From: a virus
Taxonomy: Duplodnaviria > Heunggongvirae > Uroviricota > Caudoviricetes
DNA: 9,199 nucleotides
Strand: one strand, 5' to 3'
IMG/VR virus record: IMGVR_UViG_2602041549_000006
Span: 1-9,199 of that record
Shown here: in pieces, positions 411 to 8,053 of the stretch
Layout: each line of letters begins with the position of its first letter
Position numbering within the stretch: the first letter of the stretch is position 1
Program-made: the position numbers and the translations under genes
The notes under the pieces: generated by a model
Database searches by the model: none
Told to the model about the DNA's origin: nothing
What the model saw: the letters and a program-made list of their open reading frames with translations, nothing else

Positions 411-919
411 CACTTCACCTCCTGCTGCGGTGCTGCTGGCATTTCACGCCAGTGCGTAACTGAGTGCGGATCCGGATATTCGGTGCCATCATCCCAGCGA
501 TTGCCATTCCACATTGCAGACCACATCTCACCGTCTTCATACATGACCATTACCGGAATTAACTTATCCGGCATTCGCTCACTACAGCTTATCCAACCAT
601 CCGGAGTTGCCGGAGAATTGCCATTTACCAAGTCAGCTCGAACATATAGCGTGTCATCATGGTGCTGATTGTGGCTGCACCACGTTAATTCGCTTAACTC
701 GCCATCTTCTGGCCATACTCCAGCCGTTTGCAGCCAGATATGGGCTGGCGCATCTTGGCAAGGTGTATTAACTGGCAACTTGTAAGTTTGGCTTACAGGT
801 TCTGCTCCCAGTGATGCCAGTGCAATCCGTGCCACTTCCATTTGTTCGCCACGGGTAAGCCCGTTATCAAGCGGATTTTTAATGGATAATTCAATACGTT
901 CTTTGGTAATAGTGGTCAT
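410..919 (-). CDS. Phage accessory protein, DUF551-like C-terminal region (169 aa)
   Basis: ATG at 919-917 with AAGGA upstream. The C-terminal stretch GWISCSERMPD...THWREMPAAP resembles the DUF551 pattern common in enterobacterial prophage early-left regions (recalled from memory). Stop overlaps the next start. Confidence 0.55.
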   Translation of the reverse strand: MTTITKERIELSIKNPLDNGLTRGEQMEVARIALASLGAEPVSQTYKLPVNTPCQDAPAHIWLQTAGVWPEDGELSELTWCSHNQHHDDTLYVRADLVNGNSPATPDGWISCSERMPDKLIPVMVMYEDGEMWSAMWNGNRWDDGTEYPDPHSVTHWREMPAAPQQEVK

Positions 920-1431
920 GCCGCGTTTCCTTCTTTCTTATTAACAATTACACCGTCATATATTTCATTAAGGTGCCCTCTCAACTCCATACGCCTTAAT
1001 GCAAATAACATGTAATCGCATTCAACCTGCTTATTTCCAGTAAATGGCTTATCGTCAGGATTACCCCAACAGCAATTACCCTTGGGCCACCCATGTACTT
1101 TCCGTACTCTTCCGTTAACAACGTGAAGTAATCCCCAGCCGGGAGGTAAATCCTCAACTGAAATAATTCCCGGCTCACTAATAAAGAATCGCCAGTCGCC
1201 CATTCCAAGAGATGGATTTTTACGAAAACGCTTTTTTCTATCTGCCAACAAGTCAGCACGAGAACACTTCGCCTCTATCAGGCATGATGCTGAATTTCTG
1301 AATCCCATAGCATCTGGCTGTTCTCCGGTACTGGTTACAGCTATAAAGCGGTCATGAAAACAAACCTTGAACCCATTGCGCTTAAGGAACTTATACGCAA
1401 TCTGACAGAGTTCGCGGTGTGTTAACGCCAT
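916..1431 (-). CDS. Hypothetical protein (171 aa) with a PD-x12-ExK arrangement (PDAMGF ... LIEAK); possible PD-(D/E)XK-fold nuclease
   Basis: Track ORF 916..1767 overlaps the upstream gene; the internal ATG at 1431-1429 has an AAGGAG SD and sits 1 nt after the upstream TGA stop. The motif was read directly from the translation; the fold assignment is inference. Confidence 0.5.
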   Translation of the reverse strand: MALTHRELCQIAYKFLKRNGFKVCFHDRFIAVTSTGEQPDAMGFRNSASCLIEAKCSRADLLADRKKRFRKNPSLGMGDWRFFISEPGIISVEDLPPGWGLLHVVNGRVRKVHGWPKGNCCWGNPDDKPFTGNKQVECDYMLFALRRMELRGHLNEIYDGVIVNKKEGNAA

Positions 1432-1432
1432 A

Positions 1433-2053
1433 TCACTCTCCTTTGATGCGAATGCCAGCTGCGCTTGCTGATTCTTCATATGCGCGTTTAGCAGCGTTAA
1501 GGATTGCTGCCAGTGGCGTATAGCCGCCATCCATTCGGATTGTGTTGTGGATGCCAGCCATTGTGTCGCGCAATTTGCTGTGGCTAGCAGACAGTTCTGC
1601 AATGCGCTTCTCTGCGGCTTCCAGCTTCTCGCGCATATCGTCAACGTACTCGACCAGAGATCCGCCAGCAGGAATTTCGCATTCCTCGACCAGTTGGAAG
1701 TAGATATCAGCTGCGGCCCGTGTGTTGCTATGCCTAGCGTCGCCCATCTCACCTTCACGAAGAGCATCGCGTTCGGCGGTAAGATTGGCTATTTTGCTGT
1801 CTTTGCCTTCCAGCTCAACGCGCAGCCTCCCTACCGTTAGCGCAATATCCTCGTTCTCCTGATCGCGGCTTTTGATGTATTGCAGGTTTCTTTCCCGTTC
1901 ATCCAACAATGCCAGCGCGATATCTGGCGAAAAGTGCTTCATAAAATCGTTAAGCGCATTAATTCGCTGATCGAAAGGCATTACAGGTGCTTCACCAGCA
2001 ATTTTTGTTTTTTCAGCGATTTCACGAAGCTTTTGATAATCAATCTTGCTCAT
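1433..2053 (-). CDS. Ead/Ea22-like phage protein (206 aa) with a coiled-coil segment
   Basis: The N-terminus MSKIDYQKLREIAEK matches the typical start of Ead/Ea22-like prophage proteins (recalled). AAGGAG SD present; ATGA overlap with the upstream gene's stop. Confidence 0.6.
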   Translation of the reverse strand: MSKIDYQKLREIAEKTKIAGEAPVMPFDQRINALNDFMKHFSPDIALALLDERERNLQYIKSRDQENEDIALTVGRLRVELEGKDSKIANLTAERDALREGEMGDARHSNTRAAADIYFQLVEECEIPAGGSLVEYVDDMREKLEAAEKRIAELSASHSKLRDTMAGIHNTIRMDGGYTPLAAILNAAKRAYEESASAAGIRIKGE

Positions 2054-2889
2054 TGGATGACTCCTTTACGAAGCTGTTCGGCGATATCTTCGAGAACGCC
2101 ATCAGAGAATGAACGGTCAAAATCGCCTTCCGGCGCATTAGCCATAAACTCAGTAGAGGTAAGAATCATCCGGGCAATATCCGCGGCGTTCTTCGCAGTA
2201 TCATCAATAAAACCAGCTTCCCAGGCAGCCAGCATTCTGTTCGCCACAAAGTAAGCGCCCTCCTTGCGTGCTTCAGTCTTCACTTCAGCCAGGAAAGCAT
2301 CGGTGGCTGGGGTGTCTGATTGCAGAGACTTTGCGCGATAGTCATTCCACCCTCTTGCATACATGGGATTAACTTGCACTCCATCTTTTACGCAATATGC
2401 CTGCCCTCCACGGTTGATAACCTTGATTTCGTCCATAGCGCCAGACTTCATCCCCGCATTCTCCGCTGCCAGCTCCGCGCACTTGGCCTCAAGAGCGGCA
2501 ACCACTTCCTGATGGTCTTTGTACTTAACGTATGAGCCGGAGATGTCATCACCTTCGGTGTTTAGCCATGCGTCATTGCAATTCACTGCGTAGGTTCTGA
2601 TGCTCTCCCGCCTATGACAGACGCCAGGCCAGTCAATAAAGTATCCGCATTCCTTCTCAGATTGCTTAAGCGATGTATTTTCAGCAGCCATCTTCGCGCA
2701 TTTAGCCTCAAGGTTATCAATCGTGATTCCAGCAGAACGACACTCCCGCAACGCCGTTTCCAGTTTTGATTCAAGTTCACCGAACTTACGGACAAGATAT
2801 TCAGCGTTTGTTTCGTTAACCTTTAAATCACTTGGGATGCATTTACCTTTCAGAAAACCATCCATCTCAATTAGTGACATTTGTTTCAT
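2050..2889 (-). CDS. Coiled-coil phage protein with an internal tandem duplication (Ea22-like region); start ambiguous
   Basis: Long minus-strand ORF. The track start at 2907 is GTG with no SD; the ATG at 2889 has GGAG upstream, so either could be real. The motif LEAKCAxxAAEN occurs twice in the protein and is visible as a DNA repeat (2476-2495 versus 2697-2715). Confidence 0.5.
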   Translation of the reverse strand: MKQMSLIEMDGFLKGKCIPSDLKVNETNAEYLVRKFGELESKLETALRECRSAGITIDNLEAKCAKMAAENTSLKQSEKECGYFIDWPGVCHRRESIRTYAVNCNDAWLNTEGDDISGSYVKYKDHQEVVAALEAKCAELAAENAGMKSGAMDEIKVINRGGQAYCVKDGVQVNPMYARGWNDYRAKSLQSDTPATDAFLAEVKTEARKEGAYFVANRMLAAWEAGFIDDTAKNAADIARMILTSTEFMANAPEGDFDRSFSDGVLEDIAEQLRKGVIQ

Positions 2890-2983
2890 TTCTTCCCACT
2901 CCGCCACATCGCATTCAGATATTTGTTGTCATTAACAGAACCGAAACTCTTTCTCTTAAGCAAGTCCTCTCATGGTAAATTCC

Positions 2984-3277
2984 TCAGTCATTACTGATAG
3001 CGCCATAACGTGAGCGGTAATTACGCAGGCGCGGGTCAATTTCAGGGAAGTGGGTATATGTGGCTTTGCGGAATGGTCGGATTGATGTCTGGTAAATTCG
3101 CTCGCGTTCTTCTTTCTCTGCAAGCCATATACAATGGCGAAATTCCTTTTCCTCTTTCGTTTCCTGCGGTATCGACATTATCAGGTTGTAGTTTTTCCTG
3201 AATTTATCCAGCACCTCCGATACGGAATTGCCGGAACATCGGCGCGCGTCATCCGCACCATACAGAGGCGCTGGCAT
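2984..3277 (-). CDS. Hypothetical small phage protein (97 aa)
   Basis: ATG at 3277-3275 preceded by an AGGAG SD; same orientation and tight spacing with neighbouring genes. No recognisable domain. Confidence 0.5.
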   Translation of the reverse strand: MPAPLYGADDARRCSGNSVSEVLDKFRKNYNLIMSIPQETKEEKEFRHCIWLAEKEERERIYQTSIRPFRKATYTHFPEIDPRLRNYRSRYGAISND

Positions 3278-3293
3278 GGTTTTCTCCTGTTGA

Positions 3294-3842
3294 TTATTTA
3301 GCTAACTTTTTCCAGATCGCTGAAACGTATTTGGCTTGGTGAATGGCATCATCAAGCGCGTTGTGGCGAGTTCCTTTGAATGGCATATCTCGCTTAGGGT
3401 CGAATCCTATTACCTTCCCAAGTTCGACGATTGTTCTTACGTCGCGGTCATTCCACCACTGCCACGGAACTGGCTGCCCTGTCAGCGAATAACTGTTTCG
3501 GAGAATAACGCAGTCAAATGATGCTCCATTCCCCCAAACCTGAACGAATTTGTGGTTAGCGTTCTTTATGATGAATTCAGATAACCATGAAAGAGCCGTT
3601 GAAAGCTCCTGAGTGTTGCTGGTTAGCGATTTTCTGGCTTCTTCACTCTGTTCCAGCCACCATAAAATCGTTGAAGCGTCAGGACGCGCTCGATATCGCA
3701 TTGATGACTCAAGCGAGATATTTACCGAGAACTCTTCTCCTGTTTCTCCGGTATTCGGGTCAAAGAATACCGCCCCAATAGAAATAACTGGCGCGTATGG
3801 CCCGTTGCCCATTGTTTCAAGGTCAACCATCAAGTGATTCAT
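3294..3842 (-). CDS. 3'-5' exonuclease, DEDD(h)/DnaQ-like fold (182 aa)
   Basis: N-terminal MVDLETMG (Exo I motif, D-x-E) and C-terminal HNALDDA (Exo III motif, H-x4-D) read from the translation. AAGGA SD upstream of the ATG at 3842. Confidence 0.7.
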   Translation of the reverse strand: MNHLMVDLETMGNGPYAPVISIGAVFFDPNTGETGEEFSVNISLESSMRYRARPDASTILWWLEQSEEARKSLTSNTQELSTALSWLSEFIIKNANHKFVQVWGNGASFDCVILRNSYSLTGQPVPWQWWNDRDVRTIVELGKVIGFDPKRDMPFKGTRHNALDDAIHQAKYVSAIWKKLAK

Positions 3843-3850
3843 GTAAGTCC

Positions 3851-4330
3851 TTAAATTGCGTGAATAGCGTGACGAGGGAAGGGGAGAGTTACTGGCTCCT
3901 CGTCTGGGTAGATAGGTTTGTTATGTTTGTGCCACTCGACATGACATGACTTGCAGAGCCACATCACATCGGTTGGTTTGCTGTAGTCGCAGTGGTGCGC
4001 CTGTGGTTTACATTCTGATCCGCAGCACTCACATTGTGGTGGTCGGATTAGCTTACCGTCGCGCAAAAAATTACCCACAATGATGTGGGCTTTTCTTTTC
4101 CATGGGTTGCTCTGAATGAACCGCTTTTTGGCTGCGTTACACCGTTCTCTTCCGCGTTCCGATGATTGATATTCTCTCCTTGCTGATACTCGATGTGGCA
4201 ATCCAGCGCGTTCTTTGTCGTATTCAGCCAGGCAAGCCCGGCAAGCGGCAGTTAATCCATCTCTGGATGCTCTTCTGATTTGAAAGTCCCTTTCTTCCTT
4301 ATGTTGATGGCATCTTGAGCAGATTTTCAT
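3851..4330 (-). CDS. HNH endonuclease (159 aa), zinc-binding, free-standing
   Basis: C-terminal QCECCG ... AHHCDYSKP ... WLCKSCHVEWH gives the HNH catalytic His pair plus Cys4-type metal ligands; additional CxxC pairs at the N-terminus. AGGAG SD upstream. Confidence 0.7.
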   Translation of the reverse strand: MKICSRCHQHKEERDFQIRRASRDGLTAACRACLAEYDKERAGLPHRVSARREYQSSERGRERCNAAKKRFIQSNPWKRKAHIIVGNFLRDGKLIRPPQCECCGSECKPQAHHCDYSKPTDVMWLCKSCHVEWHKHNKPIYPDEEPVTLPFPRHAIHAI

Positions 4331-4339
4331 ATTCAGCTC

Positions 4340-4813
4340 CTAGAACGGAATATCCGAATCGTCGAAGTTCATAGGTGGTTCGCTGTGATTCCCATGCTGC
4401 TGAGATTGCTGTCTTTGTTGCTGGCCGTTATTTCGCTGAGGTGAAGACTGTTCATTGCCTCCTTGCTTGCCACCAAGCATTTGCATGGTTCCACCAACGC
4501 CTACGATAACTTCGGTAGTGAACCGATCCTGTCCACTTTGATCCTGCCATTTTCTTGTCCGCAATTTGCCTTCAAGATAAACCTCTGAGCCTTTCCGCAG
4601 ATACTCGCTGGCAATTTCTGCCAGTTTCCCGCTCATTACCACACGGTGCCACTCCGTCTGCTCCTTTTGCTCTCCAGTTTGCTTATCACGCCATTGTTCT
4701 GACGTAGCAACTGTAAGGTTTGCAAATGCCGTTCCTGATGGTGAATATCTGATTTCTGGATCATGCCCAAGGCGACCAATAATGATCACCTTATTTACGC
4801 CTCTGCTTGCCAT
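4340..4813 (-). CDS. ssb: Single-stranded DNA-binding protein SSB (157 aa)
   Basis: OB-fold N-terminus ([17 protein letters not shown]...), Gly/Gln-rich linker and the canonical acidic tail DDSDIPF. Confidence 0.9.
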
Positions 4814-5521
4814 TTATGCCGCCTGTTTTAGCTCGTTAACTCTGATGTTCATTACCTGAACGCATTTAGCCTGCGCATCCTCATTGCCAGCCATTAATTG
4901 CCAGTCACGCTGATAACGCTCTATGAGTTTTTTCTTGTCAGTTTCTGTTGATGCATAATCGCTGAAGTCTTTCAGGATTTGTTCGCAGTCAACCGATGGA
5001 GATTTCTGGTTGGTATTTTCTGGTGATGGTTTGTTATCTGATGCTGGGATTGCCCATCCCGGCAGCGATGGAGGGAGCCAGTAAAATCCTGTTCCATCCT
5101 TCAGTTTTGCCCTGTGCCACCCCTGCTTTTTATCGAGAGATGTTTGTGCGAAACCTTCCTCAAGGTTATACAGATACCGACCGATTCCCCATTGAACGGC
5201 AGCACGCTTCATTGCACCGGAACGACCACCTTTGACGGCTTCTACCTGCGTGTTTTCAGCAGCATCCCATTTGGTTACCCATTCGGAATCAATCTTGATT
5301 GATATGCCGCATTCAACTCCGCCGTTGTTGGGAATATCGCGGTATTCATTGCGCCATCCTGCTTTGCCGCAAACATCGTCCAGGCGTTTCATGATTGCCC
5401 GGTTCGTGACATAAGCCAGCACCATAGCCCACACCTTGCCATCGCGTGTTTTACCGCTTTGCTGTATTCGCCATTCGATATCTTCAGGGCTGAATGGCTC
5501 ATCGAATTTGTTCAAATCCAT
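4814..5521 (-). CDS. Single-strand annealing recombinase, Rad52/Sak-like family (235 aa); functional analogue of lambda Bet / P22 Erf
   Basis: Motifs GWRNEY, GGVECGISI and AVQWGIGRYLY fit Rad52-family annealing proteins (recalled). Sits immediately upstream of ssb, with a GAGGTGA SD. Confidence 0.65.
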   Translation of the reverse strand: MDLNKFDEPFSPEDIEWRIQQSGKTRDGKVWAMVLAYVTNRAIMKRLDDVCGKAGWRNEYRDIPNNGGVECGISIKIDSEWVTKWDAAENTQVEAVKGGRSGAMKRAAVQWGIGRYLYNLEEGFAQTSLDKKQGWHRAKLKDGTGFYWLPPSLPGWAIPASDNKPSPENTNQKSPSVDCEQILKDFSDYASTETDKKKLIERYQRDWQLMAGNEDAQAKCVQVMNIRVNELKQAA

Positions 5522-7308: not shown

Positions 7309-7968
7309 TTAACTAAATGTCTCTTCAGGCCACTGGCTGGCGATAACTTTCCCTACTACGGAACAGCTATCATTGCATGGAATCATTGGATATTGCGGGT
7401 TTAGTGGCTGTAGGAACACCTGACCGCTATCCCTGATCAGTTTCTTGAAGGTAAACTCATCACCTCCAAGTCTGGCTATGCAAAAATCACCGGGCTCAAT
7501 AGCCTGCTCAGGGTCAACAAGAATTAACATCCCGTCAGGAAAGCTTGGCTTGGATCCTGTTGGCGCGGTCATGGAATTACCTTCAACCTCAAGCCAGAAT
7601 GCAGAATCACTGGCTTTTTTGGTTGTGCTTACCCATCTCTCCGCATCACCTTTGGTAAAGGTTCTAAGCTCAGGCGAGAACATCCCGGCCTGAACATGAG
7701 AAAAAACAGGGTACTCATATTGTTTTTTAACGGGGGCAGATGAGTATTCGCCAACAGGTGAAAATGTACCGTCGTGGTTGAATGAGACGTTATCAATACC
7801 AAGGTATTTAAACACCACACCAATCTCGTCAAGAGATGGATGACGAGATCCGCGCAACCAGTGACCAATTCCACCCTGCGTCATACCAAGCTCTTCAGCT
7901 AACTTCTCTTGAGTTATGCCGAGTTCTTTCATTCTGGATCTAGCCAGTTCATACCATTTCATTTTCAT
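7309..7968 (-). CDS. cI: CI-type prophage repressor (219 aa): non-lambda N-terminal HTH domain fused to a lambda-cI-like LexA/S24 C-terminal domain
   Basis: The C-terminal about 130 aa ([19 protein letters not shown] ... [12 protein letters not shown]) is near-identical to lambda cI as I recall it, including the Ala-Gly cleavage site and the Ser and Lys of the catalytic dyad; the N-terminal about 85 aa is different. ATG at 7968-7966 with an AAGGA SD; the track ORF extends to 8043. Confidence 0.9.
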
Positions 7969-8024
7969 ATCCTTATTATTACGCTCTGTACTAAAACCAT
8001 CCATGCACAAGATGTATTTTTTGT

Positions 8025-8053
8025 TTGCATTCCAAAAGTACATATCGTATTAT
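8025..8053 (+). promoter_or_regulatory. PR candidate: -35 TTGCAT (8025-8030), 17 bp, -10 TATTAT (8048-8053), inside the OR region 7969-8079
   Basis: Best sigma70-like match on the plus strand upstream of cro; SD GGAGGG at 8071-8076. Operator half-sites could not be defined confidently; AGTACATATCGTATT (8036-8050) and ATTACGCTCTGTACT (7979-7993) resemble the OL element. Confidence 0.4.

Follow-up and report, generated by a model that had tools for sequence, protein, structure and literature searches.

A short repeated motif in a mosaic accessory gene

The window, which is the whole 9,199 nt stretch of DNA that was analysed, is the reverse complement of contig KI543966.1 from Escherichia coli CE516 (GCA_000496995.1) and belongs to a prophage. 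On its minus strand, between positions 2050 and 2889, lies an accessory gene for a protein of 279 amino acids (aa) in which a short motif occurs twice. We consider it probable, at roughly 80%, that the repeat is an old paralogous motif whose two copies were united by a gene fusion and is not a new duplication, that the gene is a mosaic, and that the motif is a site of exchange.

The initial annotation noted a 12-residue motif recurring about 70 residues apart, and both peptides (LEAKCAKMAAEN and LEAKCAELAAEN) are indeed found in the minus-strand open reading frame (ORF), 73 residues from each other. The copies start at residues 60 and 133 when counted from ATG 2889 (66 and 139 when counted from an in-frame GTG at 2907), and are therefore in frame and in direct orientation at a spacing of 219 nt. 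The underlying DNA forms a 36-nt direct repeat (2458-2493 versus 2677-2712) with 29 of 36 positions identical (81%). Two repeated DNA strings had also been listed for this region; the second is located exactly at 2476-2495, and the first lies at 2695-2713 instead of 2697-2715, an offset of 2 nt.

Comparison of the protein with itself under BLOSUM62 yields, as its highest-scoring ungapped match off the main diagonal, the 16-mer LEAKCAKMAAENTSLK / LEAKCAELAAENAGMK, whose score of 60 is reached by none of 1000 residue shuffles (28.6 ± 4.1, maximum 52). Likewise, codon shuffles match at 21.8 ± 1.0 of 36 nt (maximum 27), and 0 of 500 attain 29/36. Outside the motif, only 4 of 57 residues on the 73-residue diagonal are identical, and Tandem Repeats Finder detects no array at a score of 30 or more in 1900-3100. 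The copies themselves differ at 7 of 36 nt; ten codons specify the same residue in both, and five of these are synonymous variants. The repeat is real and significant, and it is limited to the short motif. A self-comparison, which had been proposed as a check, thus returns a significant match with nothing similar beyond it.

Module boundaries were derived from BLAST comparisons with three annotated relatives (E. coli RM8385, strain EH01-18-04-A and phage HZ41), and they divide the gene into modules A to D (Table 1). Alignments of 2971-2649 to the genes that follow DUF2737 in RM8385 and EH01-18-04-A both stop at 2649. In module A, DNA identity is 97.8% to the RM8385 gene (WP_000812206.1, 185 aa) and 94.5% to a 'hypothetical protein' gene of EH01-18-04-A; hkaH of phage HK620 is 98.5% identical over the head side of the junction. 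Exactly at 2649, homology of module B to Ead/Ea22-like genes begins, and it extends to approximately 2446/2457 with 91.7% DNA identity to WP_203075303.1 of EH01-18-04-A and 92.7% to phage HZ41. This cassette is covered by the PF13935 profile in the related proteins P0108 and P0110. Module C is absent from all three annotated relatives (L001-L003) by BLAST. Module D has invariant columns in the alignment and carries the conserved anchors TPATDAFLAEV (2281-2313) and LRKGVIQ (2053-2073), and its stop codon overlaps the ATG of the next gene as ATGA.

Three protein layouts emerge from these comparisons. Proteins of the hkaH type read A-[motif]-TSLKQSEKE-FNDFCREEFSEWEDD.TE-D, those of the Ead/Ea22 type read MSKIDYQALREAAE...GRH-CGYFIDWPGVC...HQEVVAA-[motif]-variable-D, and the window protein reads A-[motif 1]-TSLKQSEKE-CGYFIDWPGVC...HQEVVAA-[motif 2]-C-D. 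Each of the two motifs is thus accompanied by the module of the parent to which it belongs. An alignment of 20 representatives contains three conserved anchors with unrelated cassettes between them, namely the motif, TPATDAFLAEV and a C-terminal LRKGGNQ. The last of these (LRKGGNQ/LRKG..Q) overlaps the start of the next gene (ATGA), and several different C-terminal domains occupy the interval between TPATDAFLAEV and LRKG..Q in relatives.

Proteins similar to residues 85-282 of the ORF read from GTG 2907, which is the part from B to D, are also encoded by phage vB_EcoM-813R1 (~50% identity) and in Punavirus/phage P1 records (47%). The Ead/Ea22-type core and C-terminal module are thus present outside the lambdoid phages as well.

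Evidence for a probable fusion of adjacent genes

In strain EH01-18-04-A the corresponding genes are unfused and occur in the order hyp, ead1, ead2, with the head and the core in separate adjacent genes. Homology to the window runs on from the D module of ead1 into ead2, and removal of positions 1759-2117 of that locus (359 nt) would yield the SEKE|CGYF junction of the window in frame. Most likely, an hkaH/Eae-type gene was joined in this way to the Ead/Ea22-like gene immediately downstream, at ...SEKE|CGYF... (2649). The sequence at the junction is GGAAT|GCGG, as compared with GGAATTT and GGCATTGCGG in the separate genes, and because the microhomology amounts to only 2-3 nt, the event would have been illegitimate. 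The motif, LEAKCA-x-x-AAEN-x-x-x-K, is present as one conserved copy in each parental family, and hence a fused gene would contain both in a single frame at a distance of 219 nt. An exchange of the variable segment that follows motif 2 probably came after the fusion.

Fused alleles are scarce. The contiguous 2649 junction was found in 0 of 5,426 complete E. coli genomes and 0 of 50,697 phage records, and two genomes hold both junction halves 478 bp apart. Among 5.8 billion protein clusters, the two-motif head is restricted to six clusters at 90% identity (P0001, P0003, P0014, P0015, P0062 and P0086). As all six share the SEKE|CGYF junction, the fusion appears to have been a relatively rare event that happened once. 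Unfused forms are far more common; P0030, for example, is on 999 contigs. The two-motif head occurs in prophages whose neighbouring genes encode Rad52-type, ERF, RecT or AAA_22-containing proteins (L129-L133; genes at 2001-27xx). The presence of four recombination modules nearby indicates that the fused gene itself has moved between phage backgrounds.

The motif as a probable recombination joint

The initial annotation offered a recombination-prone repeat as one explanation of the recurring motif, and several comparative observations support this proposal: copy number varies, one allele is shorter by exactly 219 nt, and mosaic breakpoints fall at the motif. Of 222 retrieved relatives, 195 have one copy and six have two, with the remaining 21 carrying spelling variants that the search pattern missed; two copies occur in 0 of 120 motif-bearing ORFs of viral contigs. 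The shorter allele, P0002, encodes 206 aa (279 minus 73), and in the alignment of its gene with the window a clean gap of 219 nt has the repeats at its borders. At the beginning of its motif (locus L124), 18 nt can be aligned to either copy in the window.

Recombinant junctions are also found at the motif in other alleles. Five other two-motif alleles match the window with 93.5-98.3% DNA identity from 2971 down to 2442-2457 and are unrelated beyond this point, with five different tails joined 1-16 nt past (3′ of) motif 2. Four loci in viral contigs (L022, L077, L084 and L058) have a gene that equals hyp of EH01-18-04-A (L002) as far as the motif and continues from there as ead1. The overlap between these two matches is 32 nt, which is the motif itself. 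Such a gene is the product that would be expected from recombination between the two EH01-18-04-A motif copies, 590 nt apart.

A survey of 121 motif occurrences in viral contigs revealed three downstream cassette classes that stand behind both A and B upstream modules. Overall, 12 different 8-mers precede the motif and 36 different 10-mers follow it (~20 downstream classes). An 'AL'-type motif follows the A head whenever the tail is not of the SLKQSEKE type. The motif therefore has the attributes of a joint, in that a short conserved sequence has unrelated flanks, these flanks are reassorted, and recombinant junctions lie inside it. We relied on breakpoints from BLAST alignments that were not anchored on the motif (2649, ~2446-2457 and ~2321). 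A change-point histogram agrees with them and was not relied on, as its loci were picked by an 18-nt pattern and flank-identity cut-offs, making it partly circular.

Because the motif forms an island of 36-48 nt with 80-100% DNA identity amid otherwise unrelated cassettes, it probably offers a point of crossover in homologous or homeologous recombination. Such exchanges were likely catalysed by single-strand-annealing recombinases of phages, for instance by the Rad52-type enzyme whose gene lies 2 kb upstream. Phage recombinases act at short or diverged homologies, and lambda Red recombines diverged sequences efficiently; Erf-type enzymes have been discussed in the same context (PMC2327257).

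The motif is comparable to the boundary sequences of lambdoid mosaics, with which it shares a short conserved island, unrelated cassettes around it, recombined flanks, junction overlaps inside the island and a single-strand-annealing recombinase encoded nearby. It differs from them in that the island lies within coding sequence, doubles as a structural heptad motif, and is present twice in cis in this allele.

Alternative explanations

A recent intragenic duplication, as the initial annotation suggested, would have copied a unit of ~73 residues that has since decayed everywhere except in the motif. In its favour, the copies form an in-frame direct repeat whose 219-nt spacing equals a whole number of codons. 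However, only the 12-16-residue motif is common to the two halves, the 73-residue unit is not duplicated, and the copies are old. The absence of an array, the 4/57 identity and the synonymous changes in 5 of 10 codons speak against a recent tandem event, and the synonymous divergence is saturating. Moreover, the DNA lying between the two motifs has ~92% identity with the core of independent Ead/Ea22-like genes, and the head is ~98% identical to hkaH-type genes. Nor are the copies mutual nearest relatives: copy 2 agrees with copy 1 at 29/36 but with the Ead/Ea22-like copies of other phages at a mean of 34/36, and each of the 37 motifs in a B context in the viral contigs resembles copy 2 (mean 34.0/36) more closely than it does copy 1 (27.9/36). 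Copy 1 has a 'KM' spelling that is tied to the A head and SLKQSEKE tail in 46 of 46 cases. We regard a recent tandem duplication as very improbable.

Two further explanations carry next to no weight. The compositional bias of coiled coils (A, E, K, L) might by chance or convergence generate two similar heptad stretches with neither common descent nor a role in recombination, and a third weak match at 1610-1645 (22/36 nt) is in fact only marginal, being reached by 15 of 1000 shuffles. The observed match, in contrast, exceeds every shuffle made, its 81% DNA identity includes a Cys codon, hundreds of family members keep the motif, and in natural recombinants the 18-32 nt over which the two partners overlap at a junction fall on it. 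Alternatively, a draft assembly could have collapsed two paralogous prophage genes, which would be conceivable for a 9.2-kb draft contig (KI543966.1) from a region repeated among prophages at up to eight places per genome. This is contradicted by the identical protein on 16 contigs from NCBI, ENA and Logan, some of them 364 kb long, and by five more clusters with the same junction in different backgrounds; we therefore view a chimera as scarcely credible.

An explanation of the kind put forward by Hendrix would hold that the motif is kept only as an oligomerization core, and that the joints arise from random illegitimate recombination followed by selection, the repeat not being recombinogenic. 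The A|B junction at 2649 is almost without homology and lies 28 nt past motif 1, the other anchors (TPATDAFLAEV and LRKGGNQ) bound cassettes too, and the heptad pattern suggests function. Several junctions nevertheless fall inside the motif, where 18-32 nt are common to both partners, and one allele differs by exactly one repeat period. As both are signatures of homology-dependent exchange, we judge this explanation to be unlikely.

Several points weigh against an ancient motif reunited by fusion and used for exchange. The direction of events is something we infer: alleles of the P0002 type with a single copy could be ancestors instead of deletion products, the B cassette could have been inserted instead of being joined through a deletion, and no deletion variant was found for this particular prophage lineage. 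Conservation of the motif might be purely functional, in which case the joints would reflect selection for viable in-frame hybrids after illegitimate recombination. Loci for the survey of viral contigs were selected through an exact 18-nt pattern, such that the clustering of change points at the motif arises partly by construction. Finally, the assignment of a zipper or coiled coil, considered below, leans on heptads and weak profile matches alongside a structure model of low confidence (pLDDT 43.7).

Interpreted as a fusion with subsequent exchange, the locus is a case of intragenic mosaicism in which parts of a lambdoid accessory gene are joined at a short conserved sequence; this is a known phenomenon and part of ordinary mosaic phage evolution. 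It reveals no new mechanism or function, as mosaicism in the Ea22 family and short-homology recombination in lambdoid phages have already been described. The locus is of value as a well-resolved example of how lambdoid/P22-like accessory genes are built, with adjacent paralogues fused and cassettes exchanged at a 36-nt in-frame motif. Public data contain the parents, the reciprocal architectures and also a natural allele with a difference of exactly one repeat period. A practical consequence for annotation is that 2050-2889 should not be entered as a plain Ead/Ea22 member, and that coiled-coil 'repeats' in such genes should not be taken as duplications.

A putative leucine zipper

In both copies of the motif, Leu or Met occupies the d positions of successive heptads (L60, M67, L74; L133, L140, M147), and Cys or Asn is present at a positions (C64, N71; C137, N144). 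An Asn residue at an a position is a classic register-setting feature of dimeric leucine zippers. The motif probably represents three heptads of such a zipper, and this pattern would explain its conservation. Both copies also draw matches below threshold to bZIP_1, TSC22, DivIC and ZapB-type coiled-coil profiles. With bZIP_1, the score is 19.4 bits, under the 27.6-bit cut-off, and only the zipper part is matched (profile positions 25-47).

An AlphaFold2 model was built on a 20-sequence alignment, and its mean predicted local distance difference test (pLDDT) value of 43.7 and predicted template modelling (pTM) score of 0.20 restrict its use to secondary structure. It places both motifs in predicted helices (57-77 and 126-150). 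The description of the gene as coiled-coil is thus plausible, given helices with leucine-zipper heptads in both motifs, although the model is of low confidence. The protein resembles bZIP/GCN4 zippers in its Leu/Met every seven residues, its Asn at a positions and the sub-threshold bZIP_1 match on both copies. It differs from them in having only about three heptads, a score under the cut-off, and no basic DNA-binding region visible in the 279-aa sequence.

The motif may function as a zipper, and a zipper kept for its function would at the same time provide an island of DNA identity for a phage annealing recombinase. A broader proposal, which we hold only tentatively and regard as doubtful, is that LEAKCA..AAEN, TPATDAFLAEV and LRKGGNQ form a selected three-anchor scaffold for cassette exchange. 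Variable effector cassettes would be swapped combinatorially on a constant, zipper-based oligomerization frame, driven by diversifying selection. If so, hkaH/Eae and Ead/Ea22 proteins of enterobacterial temperate phages would be involved, with selection acting, for example, through interaction with host or defence factors. Two-motif alleles would then be intermediates able to donate and delete cassettes.

Family assignment

The gene had been labelled Ea22-like, and this is correct for the core cassette only. The 279-aa protein scores 15.2 bits with PF13935 (E = 0.034, residues 65-160), short of the 27-bit gathering score, and sister two-motif alleles P0015 and P0086 pass the same profile at 42-45 bits. 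It lacks the N-terminal segment MSKI(D/N)YQ.LREAAE of Ead/Ea22 proteins; its own N terminus, MKQMSLIEMDGFLKGKC, is of the hkaH/Eae type. The Ead/Ea22 core cassette is present at 2649-2446 with 91.7-92.7% DNA identity. Characteristic of hkaH/Eae proteins are the head MKQM.LIEMDGFLKGKC...GITIDNLEAKCAKMAAEN.SLKQSEKE and the C-terminal module TPATDAFLAEV..., which are retained with 97.8% and 98.2% identity. The single-motif architecture of that group (~150-190 aa) is replaced here by 279 aa and two motifs. On these comparisons, the protein is best described as an hkaH/Eae::Ead/Ea22 hybrid.

The likeness to hkaH/Eae genes such as that of WP_000812206.1 extends to position: in both cases the gene comes next after abc2 and DUF2737, and its start forms an ATGA overlap. 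Where that protein has an 18-residue linker, FNDFCREEFSEWEDDITE, the window gene has 112 residues comprising the Ead/Ea22-type cassette, the second motif and segment C. With Ead/Ea22 proteins (PF13935; lambda Ea22, HK620 hkaG), the product shares residues 81-144, a CGYFIDW...LEAKCA.LAAEN core that is also found in P0108, P0110, HZ41 and ead1 of EH01-18-04-A, in addition to the same genomic neighbourhood. In contrast to these proteins, it is without the MSKIDYQALREAAE N terminus. Like Ead/Ea22-like genes, 2050-2889 is situated between the recombination genes and int within the early-left accessory region.

Members of the Ead/Ea22 family have a mosaic architecture with a central coiled coil (PMC10834534, PMC7093339). 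Experiments on Ea22 from lambda and Stx phage characterized lambda Ea22 as pro-lysogenic, tetrameric and mosaic (PMC7093339, PMC10834534), and extending its function to the 279-aa protein by analogy would be speculation. Searches with the 279-aa protein gave no match in NCBIfam or PADLOC, only families of unknown function in PHROGs, and only noise in the PDB (E ~0.8, amine oxidases), where the C-terminal domain of lambda Ea22 (8DSX) was not matched. A literature search for hkaH returned unrelated papers only.

The start codon and the upstream DUF2737 remnant

The product of the gene is a 100% match to the 'Eae protein' ESS94838.1 of E. coli CE516 (cluster P0001), and gene calls give the identical protein on 16 contigs, which come from NCBI, ENA and Logan samples and include some of 364 kb. 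The choice between GTG 2907 and ATG 2889, which the initial annotation left ambiguous, is real in the raw sequence and is settled in favour of ATG 2889 by homologues and gene calls. We assign the start to this ATG because the public records and the calls on 16 contigs give 279 aa, because essentially all homologues of the head type open with MKQM, because the DUF2737 stop in relatives overlaps ATG 2889 as ATGA, and because GGAG at 2899-2902 sits 9 nt upstream. The in-frame GTG (2905-2907, minus strand) was rejected, as homologues begin with MKQM and no Shine-Dalgarno-like sequence precedes it. In intact relatives, the six codons from GTG 2907 are DUF2737 coding sequence in a different frame.

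The DUF2737 gene directly upstream is a deletion remnant. Relative to RM8385, 77 nt are missing, out of frame, between 12-nt imperfect direct repeats (GAGAGGACTTGC / GAGAGGAATTGC). What is left is MRGLA* and an out-of-frame C-terminal part that still closes in the TGA overlapping ATG 2889. The same position has its intact length in other two-motif alleles (L129-L133).

Genomic setting and additional features

The window comprises the immunity and early-left region of a P22-like/lambdoid prophage, with transcription on the minus strand (Table 1). Genes occur in the order cI-like repressor, N, Rad52-type recombinase, SSB, exonuclease, Abc2, 2050-2889, Ead_Ea22, DUF551, DUF4752 and integrase, the last two coming after DUF551 in longer contigs. 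The Ead/Ea22-like gene at 1433-2053 adjoins 2050-2889 downstream, is paralogous to it, and is syntenic with ead2 of strain EH01-18-04-A. No Rfam family was detected in the window at gathering thresholds, and promoter and terminator scans of 1300-3400 gave results at or under shuffle expectation.

Table 1. Coordinates of the motif copies, modules and genes in the window.
Feature	Position	Strand	Remarks
Motif copy 1, LEAKCAKMAAEN	2677-2712	minus	residues 60-71; 16-residue version reaches 2665
Motif copy 2, LEAKCAELAAEN	2458-2493	minus	residues 133-144; 16-residue version reaches 2446
Mosaic early-left accessory gene	2050-2889	minus	279 aa + stop; start ATG 2889
Module A, HK620 hkaH/Eae-type head with motif 1 and TSLKQSEKE	2650-2889	minus	residues 1-80
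Module B, CGYFIDWPGVC...HQEVVAA cassette	2494-2649	minus	residues 81-132; core of Ead/Ea22-like (PF13935) proteins elsewhere
Module C, variable segment (..SGAMDEIKVINRGGQAYCVKDG...SLQSD)	2322-2445	minus	only in alleles of the P0002, P0005, P0006 and P0013 type
Module D, common C-terminal module	2050-2321	minus	98.2% to L001, 95.8% to L002
GGAG, Shine-Dalgarno-like	2899-2902	minus	read from sequence; 9 nt 5′ of ATG 2889
DUF2737 gene remnant	2886-2973	minus	deletion junction 2957-2971
cI-like repressor gene	7309-8043	minus	
N-like protein gene	immunity and early-left region of window	minus	
Rad52-type single-strand-annealing recombinase	4814-5521	minus	PF04098, PF00436 and PF11043 cited jointly for recombinase, SSB and Abc2; same operon as 2050-2889
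SSB	4340-4813	minus	annotation of same genes on matching contigs
Rv2179c-like exonuclease	3294-3842	minus	
Abc2 anti-RecBCD	2984-3277	minus	annotation of same genes on matching contigs
Ead/Ea22-like gene, 206 aa	1433-2053	minus	PF13935, E = 8.1e-19, 69 bits
DUF551 gene	410-919	minus	

The weak third match to the motif lies on the minus strand within the Ead/Ea22 gene at 1433-2053, in the peptide ...EKLEAAEKRIAEL...; with 22/36 nt, which 15 of 1000 codon shuffles also reach, it was rejected as a genuine copy. The string LEAAEKRIAEL is present too in the second Ead/Ea22-like gene of phage HZ41.

An 18-nt inverted repeat (2409-2426 and 2708-2725) is complementary at 17 of 18 positions, a level reached by 1 of 300 codon shuffles. 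Its arms are 281 nt apart and enclose both motifs and the B cassette. By eye, the equivalent arms of the P0002 allele (L124) match at only ~11 of 18 positions, and conservation is not apparent.

A 283-aa ORF in the mechanical list (916-1767, minus strand) runs into the Ead/Ea22 gene. On identical contigs, the gene called here encodes 171 aa, equivalent to 916-1431, and this product matched no Pfam family. Between the exonuclease and SSB genes, 3851-4330 (minus strand) encodes a 159-aa Cys/His-rich protein with the pattern CxxC ... HHC ... CKSCHxxWH. It has no match in Pfam or PADLOC, and by eye it resembles an HNH-type zinc-finger nuclease motif.

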